A program made the translations under genes and the position numbers. From NCBI GenBank assembly GCA_013115125.1, contig JABANN010000283.1, positions 1-42,979 on the forward strand: a DNA stretch of 42,979 nt, in the 5' to 3' direction. The DNA comes from Perkinsus olseni. Its lineage: Eukaryota. Below, piece by piece: positions 24,596 through 31,233 of the stretch. How positions within the stretch are numbered: the first letter of the stretch is position 1; each line of letters starts with the position of its first letter. Below the pieces are notes generated by a model. It saw nothing but the letters and a program-made list of their open reading frames with translations. It was not told the origin of the DNA and made no database searches.

Positions 24596-26848
24596 TCAAT
24601 CATCCTTCGCCATGTCCAGAATGGAGTGGAACTCGTCATGAGCATTAGGTCTGAGGGCCTTCACTCTACCTTTGATCTCATCGAGGAAGTTCCAGGCCAA
24701 GACCACCACAATTAGATCAGATTTCTCATTCTGCAGGGCGGCCTTCGGTTCATAGACCATCAGACCCTTGATGCCGGGGACTTGAAGGCCGGCCTTCCTC
24801 GGGTTATCATCAACAACATAAGCCAATTCATTACTGACACCGGCAAAGTTGAGGAGGACAACTGCCTTAGCCGCTGCACCATAAGCGACAACCTTACGGC
24901 CCTCCATCCACCACTCACGAAGGCGCCGGAGGAAGCTCGTCGCCCGAGTTTTGGCAAAATCAGCGAAGTGCTCGTAGGCACCAATGCTGTAGATGCCTCT
25001 ACCCTCCTCTTCAGTGAGTTCACTCTTGACCGAGTCCTCGACGAGTTCCATCCGGACACCTTTCCTCAGGCAGAAGATATAGGAAGTACCATGGATGCTG
25101 GGCTTGGTGACACGTACCACAGTAAAGCCGCACCTCTCAGACAAGACGACCATGGACTTGGTAGAGAAGAAGGACTGATGCTCATGATAAATCGTGTCGA
25201 ACTCCCCTTTGGCAACTATGTCGGCCTGACTGGTCTGTATGTAGAGCCTCGACTCATCGCTCATCACCTCCGAGCAGGCTTGCAGGAACTCCGCTGGCTT
25301 TGCAACGTGAGCGAAAACATTCTGAGCGGTCAAAGCATCGACGACACCAATCTGTCGAGCAACTTGAGGGGACCAATAATCACAGATAGCGCGATGGCCT
25401 TTCTTGATGGTGACTTCACTCATCAGATTCACAGCAGGATCGACACCAACAGTCTTCCATCCGCGCTGTTTGAAGTAGTCCAACAGAGTGCCGTCATTAC
25501 ACCCGACATCAAGGACAATACCATCCGACTTCCCAACATCCTTCGTTACCATATCAGCGAACCAGGCCGAATATTTGGCCAAAGTTGTCGAAGTACCCGA
25601 CACGTACACATAGTCGCGGAAGAGGATATCCGGGTTGACAACATGAGCCAATTGCAGATGCCAGCAATGCTCACAAATCTTCACTTGAAGAGGGAACGAC
25701 TTGACATCCTCAGAATTAACGGGATGGAAGCTGTTAGCGGGCGGTTGAGTACCCAAGTCAAGGACCAGTTTGAGATCAGCTTGACCGCAACAGCGGCACT
25801 CCTTGACTTTAGTACACTCGAATGCCTTGGCATCCCTAATCTCGGTGTATCGGTCGGCGAGCCGAGGTCCAGCCAGAATGATGTCATCCCAATTGTCTCT
25901 GATCTCCTTGCAGATACTCTCAGCCGTGCCAATAAACTTGAAGGAGGGTATGGCTTTGAGGAACTTATCAGTCGAGACGCAAAAGTCGTAGGTCGTCTTG
26001 GTGAACTTCTCGTTACCCTGAGTACCGGGGACTAGCTGTTCGCGTACCAAAGGGACATTGAAGAAGTCCGACACCCTCTTGCCGAATTCATAGACCGTAT
26101 GCTGAACGCTCGCGAGATTGTACAAACCCGGCTCGGGCTGATGCTCGATTATAGCGCCAACAGCCCGGCATAGGTCCTCAAGGGCAAGAACTGGTCGATG
26201 CACATGTTCCACAAAGATACCAACTTTCTTCCGAGTGAGGGCCGAGTAAGCCATAGCATTGACCATAACATCACTACGCAGGTTCAATGACCATCCACAT
26301 ACTGTACCCATGCGCACACCATATATCTTATCCTTGGAACCTCTATGAGAGATATAATACTGAGAAACAAGATCCATAGACTTCTTGCATATATCATAAT
26401 AATTGTGGCCTCTGTACTCGCTGTAATCCTCGTCGACCATACCAGTAGTATCACCATAGACGCTGGAGCTGCTCGCGTAAATTACGACTTGCCCTTCTGG
26501 ACGCTTAGCGCTCAGGAAGCGCGACAGATTATAGACACTATTAGAGATAGCACCAAAAGCAGTAGTGCAGGAACGAACAGAAGGGTTGCCAGCCATCAAG
26601 ATAGCGACATCCTTGTCCGCACACTGTTTCTCGTAGTCACAATCATCTCGATTCGTGTACTCAATCTCCTCAATACCAGCTCTCTTTAGCGCGAGCAAAA
26701 TCTGAGAGTTATCATGATCCACAACAGTGACATGACACCCTTGATGATGCAGGTAAAGAGCGAGACGGCTCCCAATGAAGCCGCCACCACCATAGATAAT
26801 AACACGGAGATTTTTGGGAGAACCGGGGTAAGAGAGAGCGGCTAGCAT
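24596..26848 (-). CDS. NAD-dependent sugar epimerase/dehydratase fused to SAM-dependent NDP-hexose C-methyltransferase, copy A (750 aa)
   Basis: Extended-SDR motifs: GGGGFIG, YASSSSVYG, YDICK (YxxxK). C-methyltransferase motifs: Zn-site CRCC...CEHC, LGTQPPANSF, DVGCNDGTLL (SAM), NVFAHV, FDTIYHEH, IHGTS, AYGAAAKA, VDDNPRKAG, as in TcaB9/TylC3/EryBIII-type enzymes. No coding introns. Confidence 0.9.
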   Translation of the reverse strand: MLAALSYPGSPKNLRVIIYGGGGFIGSRLALYLHHQGCHVTVVDHDNSQILLALKRAGIEEIEYTNRDDCDYEKQCADKDVAILMAGNPSVRSCTTAFGAISNSVYNLSRFLSAKRPEGQVVIYASSSSVYGDTTGMVDEDYSEYRGHNYYDICKKSMDLVSQYYISHRGSKDKIYGVRMGTVCGWSLNLRSDVMVNAMAYSALTRKKVGIFVEHVHRPVLALEDLCRAVGAIIEHQPEPGLYNLASVQHTVYEFGKRVSDFFNVPLVREQLVPGTQGNEKFTKTTYDFCVSTDKFLKAIPSFKFIGTAESICKEIRDNWDDIILAGPRLADRYTEIRDAKAFECTKVKECRCCGQADLKLVLDLGTQPPANSFHPVNSEDVKSFPLQVKICEHCWHLQLAHVVNPDILFRDYVYVSGTSTTLAKYSAWFADMVTKDVGKSDGIVLDVGCNDGTLLDYFKQRGWKTVGVDPAVNLMSEVTIKKGHRAICDYWSPQVARQIGVVDALTAQNVFAHVAKPAEFLQACSEVMSDESRLYIQTSQADIVAKGEFDTIYHEHQSFFSTKSMVVLSERCGFTVVRVTKPSIHGTSYIFCLRKGVRMELVEDSVKSELTEEEGRGIYSIGAYEHFADFAKTRATSFLRRLREWWMEGRKVVAYGAAAKAVVLLNFAGVSNELAYVVDDNPRKAGLQVPGIKGLMVYEPKAALQNEKSDLIVVVLAWNFLDEIKGRVKALRPNAHDEFHSILDMAKDD

Positions 26849-27610
26849 TTCCCAGAGACCTCAAAACTGGTAGGAAACTGAAATAACAACCACGATAGTA
26901 CAAGAAACACGGGACGCGACTATCTTGCTCAGACCCCCGGGAATGAGGTCTCATCTTCTTATAAAACCCGAAGAAGGCCTCGACTAGTGAGTGGACCTGA
27001 CTGCGTCGCATCACCCGTTCCCCGAACCCTACTGAACAAGCACGCACTCCCTAACTTCGTGACAAAATCTCCACGCTAGAAATACTAGAGCGATTCGATG
27101 ATGCGCACACAATGAGCACTAACGCTAGACGGGTTTCATTCAACTGGTCTAGCTTGTTTATATCGAAATGATCACCGCGTATGTACGCAACTCACAAACG
27201 GATTCTGTTGCGTTCAATAAGTCTTAGAGGTGCTCAGCGAGACTCCTCATTCGCCTCTTAGAGAAGCATCTGAACGTGGGAAGGGATCCCTAGCTCTGCG
27301 TTGAGAAGGGAAAATGGAGCACATATTCCGCGTCAGGCAATGAATCGGCTCACAAAATCTAGACTGTCTCCACGCGCTCACGGGAAGACATACACGCCTC
27401 GATGGTTGAACCTCAGGCACGCTTCTAAGATGCGTTGGGGAGTGAGAAGCGATGAGAGCTCCAACCTTCGCTCAATCTACGTCATTCATCTCATCGATTA
27501 CTACAAACGGTAAAAGTGCACCCCGGTCTACTTGGGCGATTACTAACGCAAGAAACACGGTTTTGGATTGACACAACACACTAGCTTCGAGTACTCGTCA
27601 TGAGAATCAA

Positions 27611-28728
27611 TCATGAGAACAACTTTCTGCCCAAACCAGCGTTCCACGCTTTGGGCGGCGGTCTACCGGCTACTATACTATCCCTGCGGCAGAGGGGGCT
27701 GCGGTGGCAGCGAAGATTAGTGGGAGTGAAGTCTCTCATTGAAGCGCTGCAAGCCCTCGTCCGTGTGTGCGATGTTTCTACCGACGGCTGCATCGCCGAC
27801 CTGTCGCTGCCCAGCGCCTCAAGCAGCTCATGGCTGCTGCCCAGGGCTCTGCTTCTGTACGTCCGTGGTGTCGACGCTATAGACCGCGGCGATCCAATTT
27901 CACTGCTACCACCGCGATCGCCGATGGGAATGCGAGAGATGCGATCTCGATCGCGGAAGGACTTCACTACGGAAGATCCACGAACACTCCTTGGGGTATC
28001 GCTCTGAGTTGCCGCGGCCGATCCAGTCCACTTTTCTAAACTTGATCTGAAAGTCCTAGCTGCATACCGGACAGGAGATTCGCCTCTGACTTTTAACGGG
28101 ATAAGGGTGTCCTGGTCTGGGCGAACCACAGTGGAGTCCTCATGCCTGCCTCTAGCGCTCATGCTTCTACCAGTAGGCGACCAACCGATATCAGCAATGC
28201 TTGCCACCTTTGGCACATGCTCACAACGAGGCATTGAGTGCAGCATCTCCTGACGCGCCGAGTCCGCGCTAACAAATCGTCGGCGGGACGACGTCACACG
28301 GCGTTGTGTGCCGGGGTCGGTCAGATGTCTCCTTCCCCCACGATGCAAGCTATCGCGTCCATCGACCCTTGCGCTGACACAAGGCGTGGAATTAGACGTG
28401 CTCGAGCAAATGGAAGGGGTTCCTTCTTTGAAGGTTAGAAGTTGCTTAGCAACTCGGCTGCTCATTTGCTCTGAGTAACTACACATTGTGAGCATCAGTG
28501 ACCGGCCCAAGGCCGAGGGAGGAGAGGGACCTACACTTCCCGAGAGACGTTGCGCACGTCAAGGGGGGGGACCCTAGGACGCACTGCTGCAGGGCGATTC
28601 CTCGTCTCCTGACCGATCTTGCTAGCGACAATTTCAGGCTTCGAGTCCATGTGGGTCATGAAGATGGATGAGCTCATCATGGAGCGACGGTAATACTCCC
28701 GACTTGGAGTTGAGCCGTCCATGACCAT
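27611..28728 (-). CDS. Hypothetical Ser/Arg-rich, probably disordered protein (2 exons)
   Basis: ORF 28728-28535 joins 28478-27611 in frame through a 56-nt GT-AG intron (28479-28534). No domain was recognised. Confidence 0.6.
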
Positions 28729-28953
28729 TTCTTAGGGAGAGAAATTCACTACCGATAAAGTGTAGCGTGGATAAAAGCCGCCGAGACTAGTCGTGGAGGA
28801 CTGGCACCAGGCTTCGCCGGGGTCTCGGGTTGTCATCAAGACGACAGGAGACAAGGAACACAACACTGCCACATCGACTATTCACGCAATGATGAAACGC
28901 GATTTGAGGTTGACGCAATGCTACGCCTGGGAACTAAACAACAGACACGGTCA

Positions 28954-31233
28954 TCACAGCTTGCTTCGAGGAGGGGTCTGCTTCGGCCTAGCCATGTCCA
29001 AGATAGAGTGGAACTCGTCATGAGCATTAGGTCTGAGGGCCTTCACTCTGCCTTTGATCTCATCGAGGAAGTTCCAGGCCAAGACCACCACAATTAGATC
29101 AGATTTTTCATTCTGAAGGGCGGCCTTCGGTTCATAGACCATCAGACCCTTGATGCCGGGGACTTGAAGGCCGGCCTTCCTCGGGTTATCATCAACAACA
29201 TAAGCCAGTTCATTACTGACACCGGCAAAGTTGAGAAGGACAACTGCCTTAGCCGCTGCACCATAAGCGACAACCTTACGGCCCTCCATCCACCACTCAC
29301 GAAGGCGCCGGAGGAAGCTCGTCGCCCGAGTTTTGGCAAAATCAGCGAAGTGCTCGTAGGCACCAATGCCGTAGATGCCTCTACCCTCCTCTTTAGTGAG
29401 TTCACTCCTGACCGAGTCCTCGACGATCTCCATCCGGACACCTTTCCTCAGGCAGAAAATATAGGAAGTACCATGGATGCTGGGCTTGGTGACACGTACC
29501 ACAGTAAAGCCGCACCTCTCAGACAAAACGACCATGGACTTGGTAGAGAAGAAGGACTGATGCTCATGATAAATCGTGTCGAACTCCCCTTTGGCAACTA
29601 TGTCGGCCTGACTGGTCTGTATGTAGAGCCTCGACTCATCGCTCATCACCTCCGAGCAGGCTTGCAGGAACTCCGCTGGCTTTGCAACGTGAGCGAAAAC
29701 ATTCTGAGCGGTCACAGCATCGACCAAACCAATCTGTCGAGCAACTTGAGGGGACCAATAATCACAGATAGCGCGATGGCCTTTCTTGATGGTGACTTCA
29801 CTCATCAGATTCACAGCAGGATCGACACCAACAGTCTTCCATCCGCGCTGTTTGAAGTAGTCCAACAGAGTGCCATCATTACACCCGACATCAAGGACAA
29901 TACCATCCGACTTCCCAACATCCTTCGTTACCATATCAGCGAACCAGGCCGAATATTTGGCCAAAGTTGTCGAAGTACCCGACACGTACACATAGTCGCG
30001 GAAGAGGATATCCGGGTTGACAACATGAGCCAATTGCAGATGCCAGCAATGCTCACAAATCTTCACTTGAAGAGGGAACGACTTGACATCCTCAGAATTA
30101 ACGGGATGGAAGCTGTTAGCGGGCGGTTGAGTACCCAAGTCAAGGACCAGTTTGAGATCAGCTTGACCGCAACAGCGGCACTCCTTGACCTCGGTACACT
30201 CGAATGCCTTAGCATCCCTTATCTCAGTGTATCGGTCGGCGAGCCGAGGTCCAGCCAGAATAATATCATCCCAGTTGTCTCTGATCTCCTTACAGATACT
30301 CTCAGCAGTGCCAATGAACTTGAAGGAGGGGATGGCTGTGAGGAACTTATCAGTCGAGACGCAAAAGTCGTAGGTCGTCTTGGTGAACTTCTCGTTACCC
30401 TGAGTACCGGGGACTAGCTGTTCGCGTACCAAAGGGACATCAAAGAAGTCCGACACCCTCTTGCCGAATTCATAGACGGTCTTCTGGACACTGGCTAGGT
30501 TGTAAACACCCCCTTGCGGCCTATACATCATAAGCGCCTCGACAGCTCGGCAAAGGTCCTCAAGGGCAAGAACTGGTCGATGCACATGTTCCACAAAGAT
30601 ACCAACTTTCTTCCGAGTGAGGGCCGAGTAAGCCATAGCATTGACCATAACATCACTACGCAGGTTCAATGACCATCCACATACTGTACCAAAGCGTAGT
30701 CCGTAGACCTTCTCAGTGCCGCCACTCTCTCTGATGTAGTGCTCTGCGATCAGATCCATGGACTTCTTAGATATATCATAGTAGTTGTGGCCCTTATACT
30801 TGCAGTACTCCTCGTCAACGACATTATCACTGGTGTCACCGTACACGCTCGAGCTGCTGGCGTAGATCAAGACTTGACCCTTCGGCCGCTTGCAGGCGAG
30901 GAACCGAGACAAGTTCCCGACAGTATTTCCCATTGTGCCACGGACACTGCTGCACGAGCGTACTGAAGGCATTCCTGCCATCATTATCACTACGTCCTTG
31001 TCCTTCACGTCAGCCTCGAAATCACACTCCTCCTTGCTGGCGTACTTTATCACCTGTATACCCGCCTGTTTGAGTGCGATCAGTATTTGTGAGTTGTCGT
31101 GGTCTACCGCTGTGACGTGACAGCCCTTATGATGGAGGTAGAGGGCTAGTCTGCTGCCGATGAAACCAGCACCACCGTAAATGATGACCCTCGGCGTTCT
31201 CGCAGGAGTAACAGCGGAGAGACTCGACAGCAT
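28954..31233 (-). CDS. Epimerase/dehydratase - C-methyltransferase fusion, copy B (759 aa, C-terminal SKL)
   Basis: Same motifs as copy A (GGAGFIG, YDISK, CRCC, DVGCNDG, IYHEH). It ends RPKQTPPRSKL-stop. Confidence 0.9.
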   Translation of the reverse strand: MLSSLSAVTPARTPRVIIYGGAGFIGSRLALYLHHKGCHVTAVDHDNSQILIALKQAGIQVIKYASKEECDFEADVKDKDVVIMMAGMPSVRSCSSVRGTMGNTVGNLSRFLACKRPKGQVLIYASSSSVYGDTSDNVVDEEYCKYKGHNYYDISKKSMDLIAEHYIRESGGTEKVYGLRFGTVCGWSLNLRSDVMVNAMAYSALTRKKVGIFVEHVHRPVLALEDLCRAVEALMMYRPQGGVYNLASVQKTVYEFGKRVSDFFDVPLVREQLVPGTQGNEKFTKTTYDFCVSTDKFLTAIPSFKFIGTAESICKEIRDNWDDIILAGPRLADRYTEIRDAKAFECTEVKECRCCGQADLKLVLDLGTQPPANSFHPVNSEDVKSFPLQVKICEHCWHLQLAHVVNPDILFRDYVYVSGTSTTLAKYSAWFADMVTKDVGKSDGIVLDVGCNDGTLLDYFKQRGWKTVGVDPAVNLMSEVTIKKGHRAICDYWSPQVARQIGLVDAVTAQNVFAHVAKPAEFLQACSEVMSDESRLYIQTSQADIVAKGEFDTIYHEHQSFFSTKSMVVLSERCGFTVVRVTKPSIHGTSYIFCLRKGVRMEIVEDSVRSELTKEEGRGIYGIGAYEHFADFAKTRATSFLRRLREWWMEGRKVVAYGAAAKAVVLLNFAGVSNELAYVVDDNPRKAGLQVPGIKGLMVYEPKAALQNEKSDLIVVVLAWNFLDEIKGRVKALRPNAHDEFHSILDMARPKQTPPRSKL

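Follow-up and report, generated by a model that had tools for sequence, protein, structure and literature searches.

Enzymes of the TylC3/TcaB9/MtmC type methylate the carbon beside the 4-keto group of an NDP-sugar, normally C3. Another branched sugar is made by UDP-apiose/UDP-xylose synthase, in which NAD+, held tightly by the enzyme, takes up the electrons from C4 and afterwards returns them to the rearranged product, the whole being redox-neutral. The routes proposed for virenose run from a dehydratase through a 3-C-methyltransferase to a 4-ketoreductase or an epimerase/reductase (relevant passages of PMC3539893), and in S. meliloti ddhA, ddhB and an 'NDP-hexose 3-C-methyltransferase' gene are consecutive (excerpt of PMC4053727). 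The C4-dehydrogenase Cj1427 is described, in part of PMC10680097, as releasing free GDP-4-keto-heptose, without 6-deoxygenation.

Here we describe two neighbouring genes in a Perkinsus olseni contig (the window, 42,979 nucleotides in all), each of which joins an extended SDR to a C-methyltransferase. In our preferred reading, held with about as much doubt as belief, they encode, in two functional tandem copies, a bifunctional nucleotide-sugar enzyme that was acquired horizontally and would oxidise C4, methylate C3 and then re-reduce C4. The fusion suggests that Perkinsus, a parasite of shellfish, makes a methyl-branched sugar.

Gene structure and domain architecture

An earlier note on this DNA had proposed two ORFs of about 750 aa without coding introns, duplicated in tandem, each fusing an extended SDR to a Zn/SAM C-methyltransferase of the TylC3/TcaB9 kind. 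Domain, sequence and fold matches bear this out, though they give no confirmation of the note's further remark that the region is otherwise intron-rich, and the proposed boundaries on the minus strand are exact. Copy A (24596..26848) is a complete single-exon CDS of 750 aa ending in ...MAKDD, without a PTS1-like tail; copy B (28954..31233, 759 aa) is likewise complete, single-exon and of the same architecture. The neighbouring copies are identical at 663 of 749 positions (89%). No coding intron is needed in either, because homology to full-length prokaryotic relatives spans 94-100% of the ORF. For copy A, the P. olseni gene models in GenBank (P0123, P0124) have other N-termini in place of residues 1-49, and so lose the NAD-binding motif. 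We consider the uninterrupted ORF the better model, because the P. marinus orthologue has the N-terminus of this ORF. Existing annotation calls the copies only hypothetical or putative.

The same four Pfam domains were found in both copies by HMM scan, all above the curated cut-offs, so that the assignment is far beyond chance: Epimerase (PF01370, residues 16-247; E 5e-20 and 6.8e-22, 72.4 and 78.5 bits in A and B, cut-off 20.9), the Methyltransf_13 Zn domain (PF08421; E 6e-19, 68.4 bits in both, cut-off 31.3), Methyltransf_23 (PF13489; E 5e-17 and 5e-18, 62.5 and 65.7 bits) and Methyltransf_14 (PF08484; E 8.5e-26 and 6.6e-26, 91.1 and 91.5 bits). The extended-SDR domain occupies residues 1-335 of each copy, with GGGGFIG, an Asp at the end of beta-2, YASSSSVYG and YDICK in copy A (25844..26848, minus strand) and G20-G21-x-G23-x-x-G26, D44, S126/S127, Y152 and K156 in copy B (30229..31233, minus strand). 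The C-methyltransferase module follows, as Zn, SAM and C-terminal domains, at residues 345-750 of copy A (24599..25816, minus strand) and residues 346-748 of copy B (28990..30198, minus strand), where it contains the Cys352/355/393/396 Zn site, the SAM motif VLDVGCNDG, Y414, H515 and Y555-H-E557-H558. Relative to prokaryotic cassette relatives, the Perkinsus proteins have a 12-residue insert of low pLDDT at about residues 274-285.

The spacer between the copies (26849..28953) has no homology to the flanks of the other copy, and the present-day repeat unit is therefore the CDS alone. The spacer ORF (27611-28510, minus strand, 299 aa, Ser/Arg-rich) has no Pfam match, nor do the six further ORFs (422-692 aa) that the window has on this strand, and no glycosyltransferase, nucleotidyltransferase or transporter partner was found in the 43-kb window.

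The methyltransferase half

In sequence searches the methyltransferase half hit MtmC (E 3.8e-54), TcaB9 and KijD1, with a profile E of 1.3e-87. In a Foldseek comparison using an AF2 model (pLDDT 85), it matched 4rv9, 3ndi and 5t67 with E 1e-33 to 1e-38, target TM 0.88-0.91 and rmsd 2.0-2.4. All 31 fused homologues have C352, C355, C393 and C396, which line up with the two CxxC pairs of TcaB9. Likewise invariant in the 31 are Y414, H515, Y555, E557 and H558, which correspond to TcaB9 Tyr76, His181, Tyr222, Glu224 and His225 when counted by hand on the HMMER alignment, the residue list being taken from the entries for TcaB9 mutants. With every tested catalytic residue present, this half is, by sequence and model, a complete Zn/SAM C-methyltransferase of the TylC3/TcaB9/MtmC type, and is predicted to transfer methyl to C3 (or C5) of an NDP-4-keto sugar.

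The SDR half

GxxGxxG and the Ser/Thr-Tyr-Lys triad are present in the SDR half; G21, G23, S126, S127, Y152 and K156 are invariant in the 31 fused homologues, and 27 of them have an Asp at position 44, where beta-2 ends. An Asp at this position is typical of SDRs that bind NAD rather than NADPH. The closest solved sequence relative is Cj1427 (6vo6), at 96.6 bits by profile (E 1.1e-26) against 75.3 for the next; by single sequence the match is 49.9 bits (E 2.6e-12), at an identity of only 22-23%. Both share YxxxK and R-x-x-T-V-x-G-x-S-x-x-x-R-x-D-x-x-V-N. The sequence matches that follow are HldD, RmlB and GalE, enzymes that oxidise transiently, and the reductase 2pk3 reaches only 24.8-27.2 bits. 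By fold, Cj1427 (target TM 0.81) ranks just below GalE (8rdg), with dehydratases, decarboxylases and 2pk3 close behind.

No NCBIfam equivalog was reached, the best being heptose_epim at 62-74 bits (cut-off 274.6), and rmlD (TIGR01214) scored 18.4 bits against a cut-off of 224. Nor does this half match the NDP-hexose 4,6-dehydratases of the RmlB/GMD kind: dTDP_gluc_dehyt gave 20.5 and 32.8 bits in copies A and B (cut-off 365.1). Such dehydratases have an Asp-Glu pair directly after the catalytic Thr; the SDR family has YASS(S/A)SVYG, as against YFSTDEIFG in RmlB-like SDRs of Pelagibacteraceae (L006, L010). To judge from these motifs and matches, the SDR half belongs to an uncharacterised subfamily of extended SDRs and binds NAD.

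Relatives and origin of the fusion

SDRs of this subfamily, recognised by at least 140 bits to the family HMM, were found in 10 of 80 prokaryotic loci; in nine the SDR gene immediately precedes that of the methyltransferase, and in one the two are fused. In the gene pairs the stop and start codons overlap. The fused locus is that of Paenibacillus zeirhizosphaerae (L009), where the gene stands alone among riboflavin, regulator and chitinase genes; WP_375357346 of P. enshidis is another fused member, and the fusion also occurs in more than 100 metagenomic proteins. A conserved GT2-like gene of 257-318 aa follows the pair in four of the 10 loci, and SDR-methyltransferase-glycosyltransferase triple fusions exist, with a glycosyltransferase match of 23 bits, below the cut-off of 27.5. 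In prokaryotes, SDRs of this kind almost always immediately precede this methyltransferase or form one protein with it, and a small GT2-like glycosyltransferase gene frequently comes next. Among the scanned ORFs of at least 90 aa in the 10 cassette loci, whose flanks extended to at most 10 kb and were much shorter in L001 and L004, there was no NTP_transferase and no strong 4,6-dehydratase; the latter could lie elsewhere in these genomes.

Klosneuvirus KNV1 encodes a full-length fused homologue (A0A1V0SJ68; 744 aligned columns, 29% identity, E 1.6e-63), and Perkinsus was the only named eukaryote with the fusion among the protein-search matches. The earlier suggestion of horizontal transfer is therefore supported as to foreign origin; its other element, novelty in a protist, is not, since the fusion arrived ready-made. 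The Perkinsus sequences group together within the cassette family in each of three trees (SDR, methyltransferase and concatenated), and the donor may have been either a bacterium or a virus. Horizontal acquisition of a pre-made fusion is well supported. With 1.0-1.4 changes per site, the stem of the Perkinsus clade is very long, which leaves room for changed function.

Divergence of the two copies

Both A and B have orthologues in P. marinus, and P. chesapeaki has a partial one, in independent assemblies. The duplication is older than the P. olseni/P. marinus split. Between A and B, dS is 1.6 upstream, 0.25 over codons 251-350 and 0.05 over codons 351-748. The drop marks a gene-conversion tract at codons about 253-742 of copy B (29008..30477, minus strand), matched by 24626..26095 (minus strand) in copy A. 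Gene conversion has homogenised the methyltransferase halves, while the SDR halves remain diverged (dS 1.63, dN/dS 0.126), with 42 type-specific positions; the methyltransferase halves are interchangeable between types. The diverged SDR halves are under purifying selection, and dN/dS is 0.09-0.14 in every segment.

The last three codons of copy B (28957..28965, minus strand) encode Ser-Lys-Leu, a candidate PTS1 tail. Both P. marinus B-type proteins (P0002, P0121) also end in -SKL, and the A-type proteins do not. Essential peroxins are reported for P. olseni in an excerpt of PMC5755239; copy B is a candidate peroxisomal matrix protein, for which Pex5 would be the import receptor. Since SDR halves and tails are distinct and the methyltransferase half is shared, the two copies suggest two variants of the reaction or two compartments.

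Possible reaction routes

In the route that we favour, the SDR would oxidise C4 of a common NDP-hexose, as the related Cj1427 does, the methyltransferase half would methylate C3 of the 4-keto intermediate, and NADH kept on the SDR would reduce C4 again. No separate 4,6-dehydratase or reductase would be needed, and the resulting NDP-3-C-methyl-hexose would be used by a glycosyltransferase encoded elsewhere. We prefer this route because Cj1427 is the nearest solved sequence relative of the SDR, because the dehydratase motif is missing from the SDR, and because no strong 4,6-dehydratase was found among the scanned ORFs of the prokaryotic cassettes. The 'one-gene pathway' of the earlier note would depend on the SDR first supplying and then removing the 4-keto group.

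A strong rival, which we rate as possible though less probable, is the classical order, in which a 4,6-dehydratase encoded elsewhere provides an NDP-4-keto-6-deoxyhexose, C3 is methylated, and the fused SDR acts last, as a 4-ketoreductase that sets C4 stereochemistry; this order would yield a 6-deoxy-3-C-methyl hexose such as those of the mycarose/virenose/evalose type. This logic is established for every characterised member of the methyltransferase family, and is followed by the proposed virenose routes and the S. meliloti gene row, as far as the cited passages go (PMC3539893, PMC4053727). A true dehydratase-like SDR takes the position upstream of related methyltransferases in Pelagibacteraceae, which argues that 6-deoxy substrates are acceptable to the methyltransferase clade taken as a whole. 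The methyltransferase is also fused to an RmlD-like reductase (P0060, named 'dTDP-4-dehydrorhamnose reductase/SAM-dependent methyltransferase' in its source), and therefore 'methylate, then reduce' occurs in fused form too. The RmlD_sub_bind matches (PF04321, cut-off 27) are weak, at 20.1 bits in copy B, none in copy A and 36-57 bits in prokaryotic members, but such low scores are compatible with reductase chemistry, and the 42 type-specific SDR positions would fit two reductases giving two C4 epimers. Against the classical order stand the lack, in all 10 cassette loci, of any scanned ORF that is a strong dehydratase or a nucleotidyltransferase, the Paenibacillus fused gene without partners, the ranking of an oxidising C4-dehydrogenase, followed by HldD, RmlB and GalE, far above 2pk3, and the NAD-type Asp.

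That the SDR is a plain epimerase, acting at C4, or at C3/C5 through a transient keto group, is improbable. It would alter only the configuration of the substrate or product, without handing over a keto group, and other enzymes would provide the keto substrate and the final reduction. The Pfam name, the GalE fold match, the best NCBIfam names (GalE and heptose 6-epimerase, far below cut-off) and a serine-rich catalytic motif resembling that of GalE/HldD are in keeping with such a role; however, three further enzymes would be needed, none of which is seen in the cassettes, and strict SDR-then-methyltransferase adjacency, overlapping stop and start codons and repeated fusion argue for consecutive steps on one intermediate.

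Finally, the absence of partner genes from the window and the uninformative annotation might suggest decaying or functionless passengers, from assembly contamination or a recent unused insertion, but this is very improbable given intact ORFs with all catalytic residues, low dN/dS throughout, orthologues in independent assemblies, GC and GC3 (0.56-0.60) like those of neighbouring ORFs (GC3 0.56-0.64), and a surrounding 43-kb contig in which no other ORF matches a prokaryotic family.

Comparison with known systems

Cj1427, which the Perkinsus SDR resembles in sequence and fold, is an oxidising C4-dehydrogenase whose NADH is recycled by alpha-ketoglutarate; it has no methyltransferase, and its keto sugar passes to separate epimerases and NADPH reductases. 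UDP-apiose/UDP-xylose synthase resembles the favoured model as an SDR that forms a branched sugar redox-neutrally through a 4-keto intermediate, but its branch arises by ring contraction, without a SAM domain, whereas methyl transfer is proposed for Perkinsus; no specific sequence relation was seen.

With the NDP-hexose 3-C-methyltransferases TcaB9, KijD1, MtmC, TylC3 and EryBIII, the Perkinsus module shares the three-domain build, four-Cys zinc site, SAM motif and five active-site residues, at 26-29% identity. The known TcaB9/TylC3-type enzymes, encoded in antibiotic clusters of actinomycetes, are separate proteins of about 410 aa, acting on dehydratase-made dTDP-4-keto-2,6-dideoxy or 6-deoxy sugars, whereas the Perkinsus module is SDR-fused and eukaryotic, with no dehydratase partner in sight. 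The proteins of the prokaryotic SDR-methyltransferase(-GT2) cassette and its fused forms, that of Klosneuvirus KNV1 included, belong to the family itself, both domains being collinear with the full-length Perkinsus proteins, at 29-40% identity and with the same invariant residues; in most named prokaryotes the two are adjacent genes, many with a GT2-like gene beside them, whereas Perkinsus has the fusion, in two paralogues, one with a PTS1-like tail.

The gene pair and its surroundings

The two open reading frames (ORFs) described in the earlier note were recovered at the positions assigned to them, on the minus strand at 24596..26848 (copy A, 750 aa) and 28954..31233 (copy B, 759 aa), and their products are identical at 663/749 positions (89%). 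An HMM scan confirmed the epimerase and C-methyltransferase domains proposed for both copies. Each has an Epimerase (extended SDR) match at residues 16-247, followed by the Methyltransf_13 zinc domain, a class I SAM domain and Methyltransf_14, with all domains exceeding the curated Pfam cut-offs. No NCBIfam equivalog was reached, the top match being ADP-heptose 6-epimerase, whose 62-74 bits fall short of the cut-off of 274.6. Alignments to prokaryotic relatives span 94-100% of the ORF, so no intron is required, in agreement with the claim that the ORFs lack coding introns.

Copy A is annotated as 'hypothetical protein', and the P. marinus A-type (XP_002765482, 749 aa) and B-type (XP_002784708 and XP_002776567, 759 aa) proteins bear the name 'nad dependent epimerase/dehydratase, putative'; in P. 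chesapeaki a partial copy occurs. The 749- and 729-aa models that GenBank gives for P. olseni copy A start differently, with N-termini unrelated to the ORF, and follow it only from residue 50; they lack its first 49 residues (window 26702-26848) and hence the GxxGxxG NAD motif. Because the plain ORF is backed by the P. marinus orthologue and by every prokaryotic relative, we favour it for copy A, and the 5' exon of the GenBank models is probably mis-predicted. Contamination was ruled out by the comparison with the P. marinus orthologue and by third-position GC content (GC3), which resembles that of neighbouring ORFs. The gene pair is real, intact and duplicated.

In window 1-42979, whose GC content is even (0.48-0.58), the surroundings of the pair show no further sugar-pathway gene. 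Six further ORFs of 422-692 aa lie on the same strand and match no Pfam family. A Pfam scan of 11 window ORFs gave no family at all, and all ten long ORFs tested besides the pair (154-692 aa) are without one. A tblastn search of the window with seven proteins encoded beside the prokaryotic relatives gave a best E of 0.12, and no homologue of their GT2-like glycosyltransferase was found in it. Between the copies lies an ORF at 27611-28510 (-), a possible gene, encoding a Ser/Arg-rich product of 299 aa with no Pfam match. Opposite-strand ORFs of 417 aa are mirrored in both copies, at 24782-26035 (+) and 29164-30417 (+), and are most likely a by-product of coding-strand composition.

Gene conversion has acted on one part of the duplicated genes

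Nucleotide homology between the copies is limited to the coding sequence (90.2% over 2214 nt), with none detected in the flanks, and is distributed very unevenly. Codons 1-250 contain 216 nucleotide differences (dS 1.63, dN/dS 0.126), codons 251-350 contain 19 (dS 0.25, dN/dS 0.086) and codons 351-748 about 20 (dS 0.052, dN/dS 0.136). Only 13 differences fall within codons 351-700, and the 104 consecutive codons 349-452 are identical. We assign the gene-conversion tracts to 24626-26095 in copy A and 29008-30477 in copy B, where the dS of 0.05 between the methyltransferase (MT) halves contrasts with saturation (dS 1.6) between the SDR halves.

Comparison with P. marinus places these events in order. 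Over the SDR part, the P. marinus A-type protein shares 89.6% identity with copy A and a B-type one shares 90.4% with copy B, as against 71% between A and B. In the MT part, A and B are 97.8% identical in the P. olseni genome and 87.5% identical in P. marinus. Correspondingly, A-type sequences part from B-type sequences across species in the SDR tree, and the P. olseni copies group together in the MT tree. From these contrasts the duplication is older than the split between P. olseni and P. marinus, with gene conversion having later evened out the 3' two-thirds. All 42 internal type-specific positions lie within residues 1-260 and none within 261-748; four more lie in the C-terminal tail. The intermediate dS of codons 251-350 suggests that conversion occurred more than once. 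In the partial P. chesapeaki protein, the SDR half is B-like overall (81% vs 72%), with an A-like stretch at about residues 133-146, which suggests that conversion between paralogues has occurred in that species as well.

The conversion tract ends just upstream of the C-terminal tails, so that these stay distinct. Copy B ends in Ser-Lys-Leu (28957-28965), a PTS1-like tripeptide that is shared by the two B-type proteins of P. marinus. Copy A ends in KDD (24599-24607) and its P. marinus orthologue in EAC, neither having Ser-Lys-Leu. Essential peroxins are present in P. olseni (PMC5755239), which makes a peroxisomal location of copy B a reasonable lead, no more. The locus is a clean case of domain-wise concerted evolution, in which one half has been evened out and the other half, like a candidate targeting tail, has stayed apart.

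Both halves retain predicted active sites

The MT half matched the NDP-hexose 3-C-methyltransferases MtmC (4rv9, E 3.8e-54), TcaB9 and KijD1 in sequence searches, with a profile E of 1.3e-87, and its AlphaFold model (pLDDT 85, pTM 0.60) superimposed on their structures with a target TM of 0.88-0.91. The four zinc cysteines do not vary among 31 aligned fused homologues, and neither do Y414, H515, Y555, E557 and H558. By HMMER alignment the latter five correspond to TcaB9 Y76, H181, Y222, E224 and H225, residues taken from those named in mutant structures among the fold matches. On every feature examined, the MT half belongs to the TcaB9/MtmC/KijD1-type family.

In the SDR half of the same 31 sequences, GxxGxxG, Ser126/127, Tyr152 and Lys156 are invariant, and an Asp is found at the end of beta-2 in 27. 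The nearest solved SDR is the NDP-sugar C4-dehydrogenase Cj1427 (6vo6/6vo8), with a profile score of 96.6 bits vs 75.3 for HldD and about 70 for RmlB, and a single-sequence E of 2.6e-12. GalE (8rdg) and Cj1427 headed the fold ranking. The Perkinsus-type SDR family carries YASS(S/A)SVYG, where RmlB-like SDRs instead have YFSTDEIFG; the Asp-Glu pair is the signature of dehydratases. These residues and the dN/dS values show both predicted active sites to be intact and maintained by purifying selection.

Prokaryotic and viral relatives

A scan of prokaryotic genome contigs gave 545 relatives, from which 80 loci were kept. In 10 of the 80, an SDR of this subfamily (at least 140 bits to an HMM of the SDR half) lies directly upstream of the MT gene or is fused to it. 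Nine of them (L001-L005, L014, L015, L017 and L050) have a separate SDR gene, often overlapping the MT gene, and L009, from Paenibacillus zeirhizosphaerae, encodes a fusion. Their hosts are Acidobacteriota, Planctomycetota, Alpha- and Gammaproteobacteria, Thermodesulfobacteriota, Bacillota and a Promethearchaeota MAG. Metagenomic polypeptides with both domains numbered 71 in the first set and 153 once a third search was added, and when 8000 candidates were scored with one family member (P0006), 2206 reached E <= 1e-30. The SDR-MT family is large.

A Pfam scan covered 109 + 42 neighbouring ORFs. Directly downstream of SDR-MT, four loci from two phyla have a conserved GT2-like gene (257-318 aa, Glyco_tranf_2_4; 40-72% mutual identity), at 2353-3309 in L001, 3703-4476 in L003, 12173-12946 in L015 and 12142-12912 in L017. 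SDR-MT-GT triple proteins (P0013 and P0055; the metagenomic ones about 940-970 aa) have a glycosyltransferase match of 23 bits, below the cut-off of 27.5. GT41 (OGT-like) TPR glycosyltransferases are encoded near the MT in L014 (3908-9814), L015 (7393-10026) and L017 (5876-9814), as well as in L022 (12217-18357). In L022 these proteins adjoin flagellin and FlgK genes, which hints that some bacteria may use the methylated sugar in protein (flagellin) glycosylation. Other neighbours are flippases and further glycosyltransferases (L002), an ABC-2 exporter (L004) and a DegT aminotransferase (L005). Neither an NTP_transferase nor a strong 4,6-dehydratase was found among the scanned cassette-neighbour ORFs, and the sole other extended SDR in the scanned loci, in L050, reached 86.6 bits where the cut-off is 365.1. 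By this gene order, the predicted SDR and MT activities show genetic coupling in many lineages and an association with glycosyltransferases.

Pelagibacteraceae single-cell genomes differ in having an RmlB-like 4,6-dehydratase (242 bits) before the MT in place of the short SDR (L006 9995-12195, L008 and L010-L013). In L006, the one such locus with neighbours scanned, a GT2 gene follows the MT on the opposite strand. This arrangement is another form of the cassette, the classical one. RmlD-like/MT fusions were also found (for example, P0060).

Among viruses, a Foldseek search of BFVD gave a full-length match to the Klosneuvirus KNV1 'Methyltransferase' A0A1V0SJ68 (743 aa; 744 aligned columns, 29% identity, E 1.6e-63). 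Atlas clusters of the same architecture are labelled mostly Nucleocytoviricota (one with 481 members), Bacteria or Uroviricota; these labels derive from few members and we treat them as a lead only. The fused form was not found in the phage genome collection by tblastn, which gave six records, none covering 80% of the query and all matching the MT half only.

Origin of the Perkinsus genes

The earlier note proposed that the fusion had been acquired horizontally from a bacterium or giant virus. Perkinsus is the only named eukaryote among the matches listed (the best 120 of 136 in the full-length search and the best 120 of 3459 in the MT-only search). In SDR, MT and concatenated (LG+C20) trees, none of which contains labelled giant-virus sequences, the Perkinsus proteins form one clade inside the cassette family, on a long stem of 1.0-1.4 changes per site. 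The concatenated tree places them beside named bacteria, outside a 56-row metagenomic clade (97*). Because of long-branch warnings we draw no donor from these trees. The single clade, the sole named eukaryote and the matching GC3 support the view that the Perkinsus lineage acquired the gene horizontally long ago, when it was already fused; between a bacterium and a giant virus as donor the trees do not decide.

Discussion

Enzymes of this methyltransferase family require a carbonyl adjoining the carbon that is methylated, and the question is how the SDR half relates to it. We favour a reaction in which the SDR, acting like Cj1427, would remove a hydride from C4 of an ordinary NDP-hexose to give a transient 4-keto sugar, the tethered MT would methylate C3 of this intermediate, and the same NADH would then give the hydride back to C4. 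The reaction would be redox-neutral overall and would yield a non-deoxy 3-C-methyl hexose nucleotide from a single polypeptide. We infer this because no strong dehydratase turned up among the ORFs scanned around the cassettes, the motif typical of dehydratases is missing from the SDR, and its nearest relative of solved structure is a C4-dehydrogenase.

Nearly as likely is the classical order, in which the SDR would be a terminal 4-ketoreductase acting on a 4-keto-6-deoxy sugar produced elsewhere. Proposed virenose routes follow this order (PMC3539893), and it accounts equally well for the paralogues keeping different SDR halves; the lack of a strong dehydratase among the scanned ORFs and the kinship with Cj1427 favour the first scheme. 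That the SDR is itself a 4,6-dehydratase was rejected on its YASS(S/A)SVYG motif, in which the dehydratase motif is absent, and on NCBIfam scores far under cut-off.

Combining oxidation, methylation and re-reduction at one polypeptide with the other results gives a broader picture that we put forward tentatively, as possible though doubtful in its entirety. A redox-neutral branched-sugar synthase making a non-deoxy 3-C-methyl hexose, widespread in uncultured bacteria and giant viruses, would have been captured by Perkinsus, possibly from a giant virus, and kept in two forms that differ in the SDR half, with one form in peroxisomes, to place C-methyl-branched sugars on the surface.

Perkinsus is a serious parasite of oysters and clams, and a sugar of bacterial or viral type that the host does not have would be worth considering as a surface marker and as a target for drugs. 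Should the SDR both supply and remove the keto group, the family would offer a new compact route to branched sugars, useful for glycoengineering.

In the openly accessible literature searched, we found no paper on the SDR-MT fusion family, nor on such an MT in Perkinsus, any eukaryotic cell or a giant virus. A 2022 review of giant-virus glycans contains no occurrence of 'C-methyl', 'TylC3' or 'Klosneuvirus'. As far as this literature goes, C-methyl-branched sugars have not so far been reported from eukaryotic cells. Sugar C-methyltransferases of the TylC3/TcaB9 family have been described from bacterial antibiotic and O-antigen pathways. The kind of enzyme is thus already known; what is new is its eukaryotic member and its variant context, within a large, uncharacterised SDR-MT family. 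For the SDR, the closest parallel among known systems is Cj1427, which shares with it both YxxxK and the motif R-x-x-T-V-x-G-x-S-x-x-x-R-x-D-x-x-V-N, and which is a C4-dehydrogenase that sets GDP-4-keto-heptose free in a reaction containing alpha-ketoglutarate (PMC10680097).
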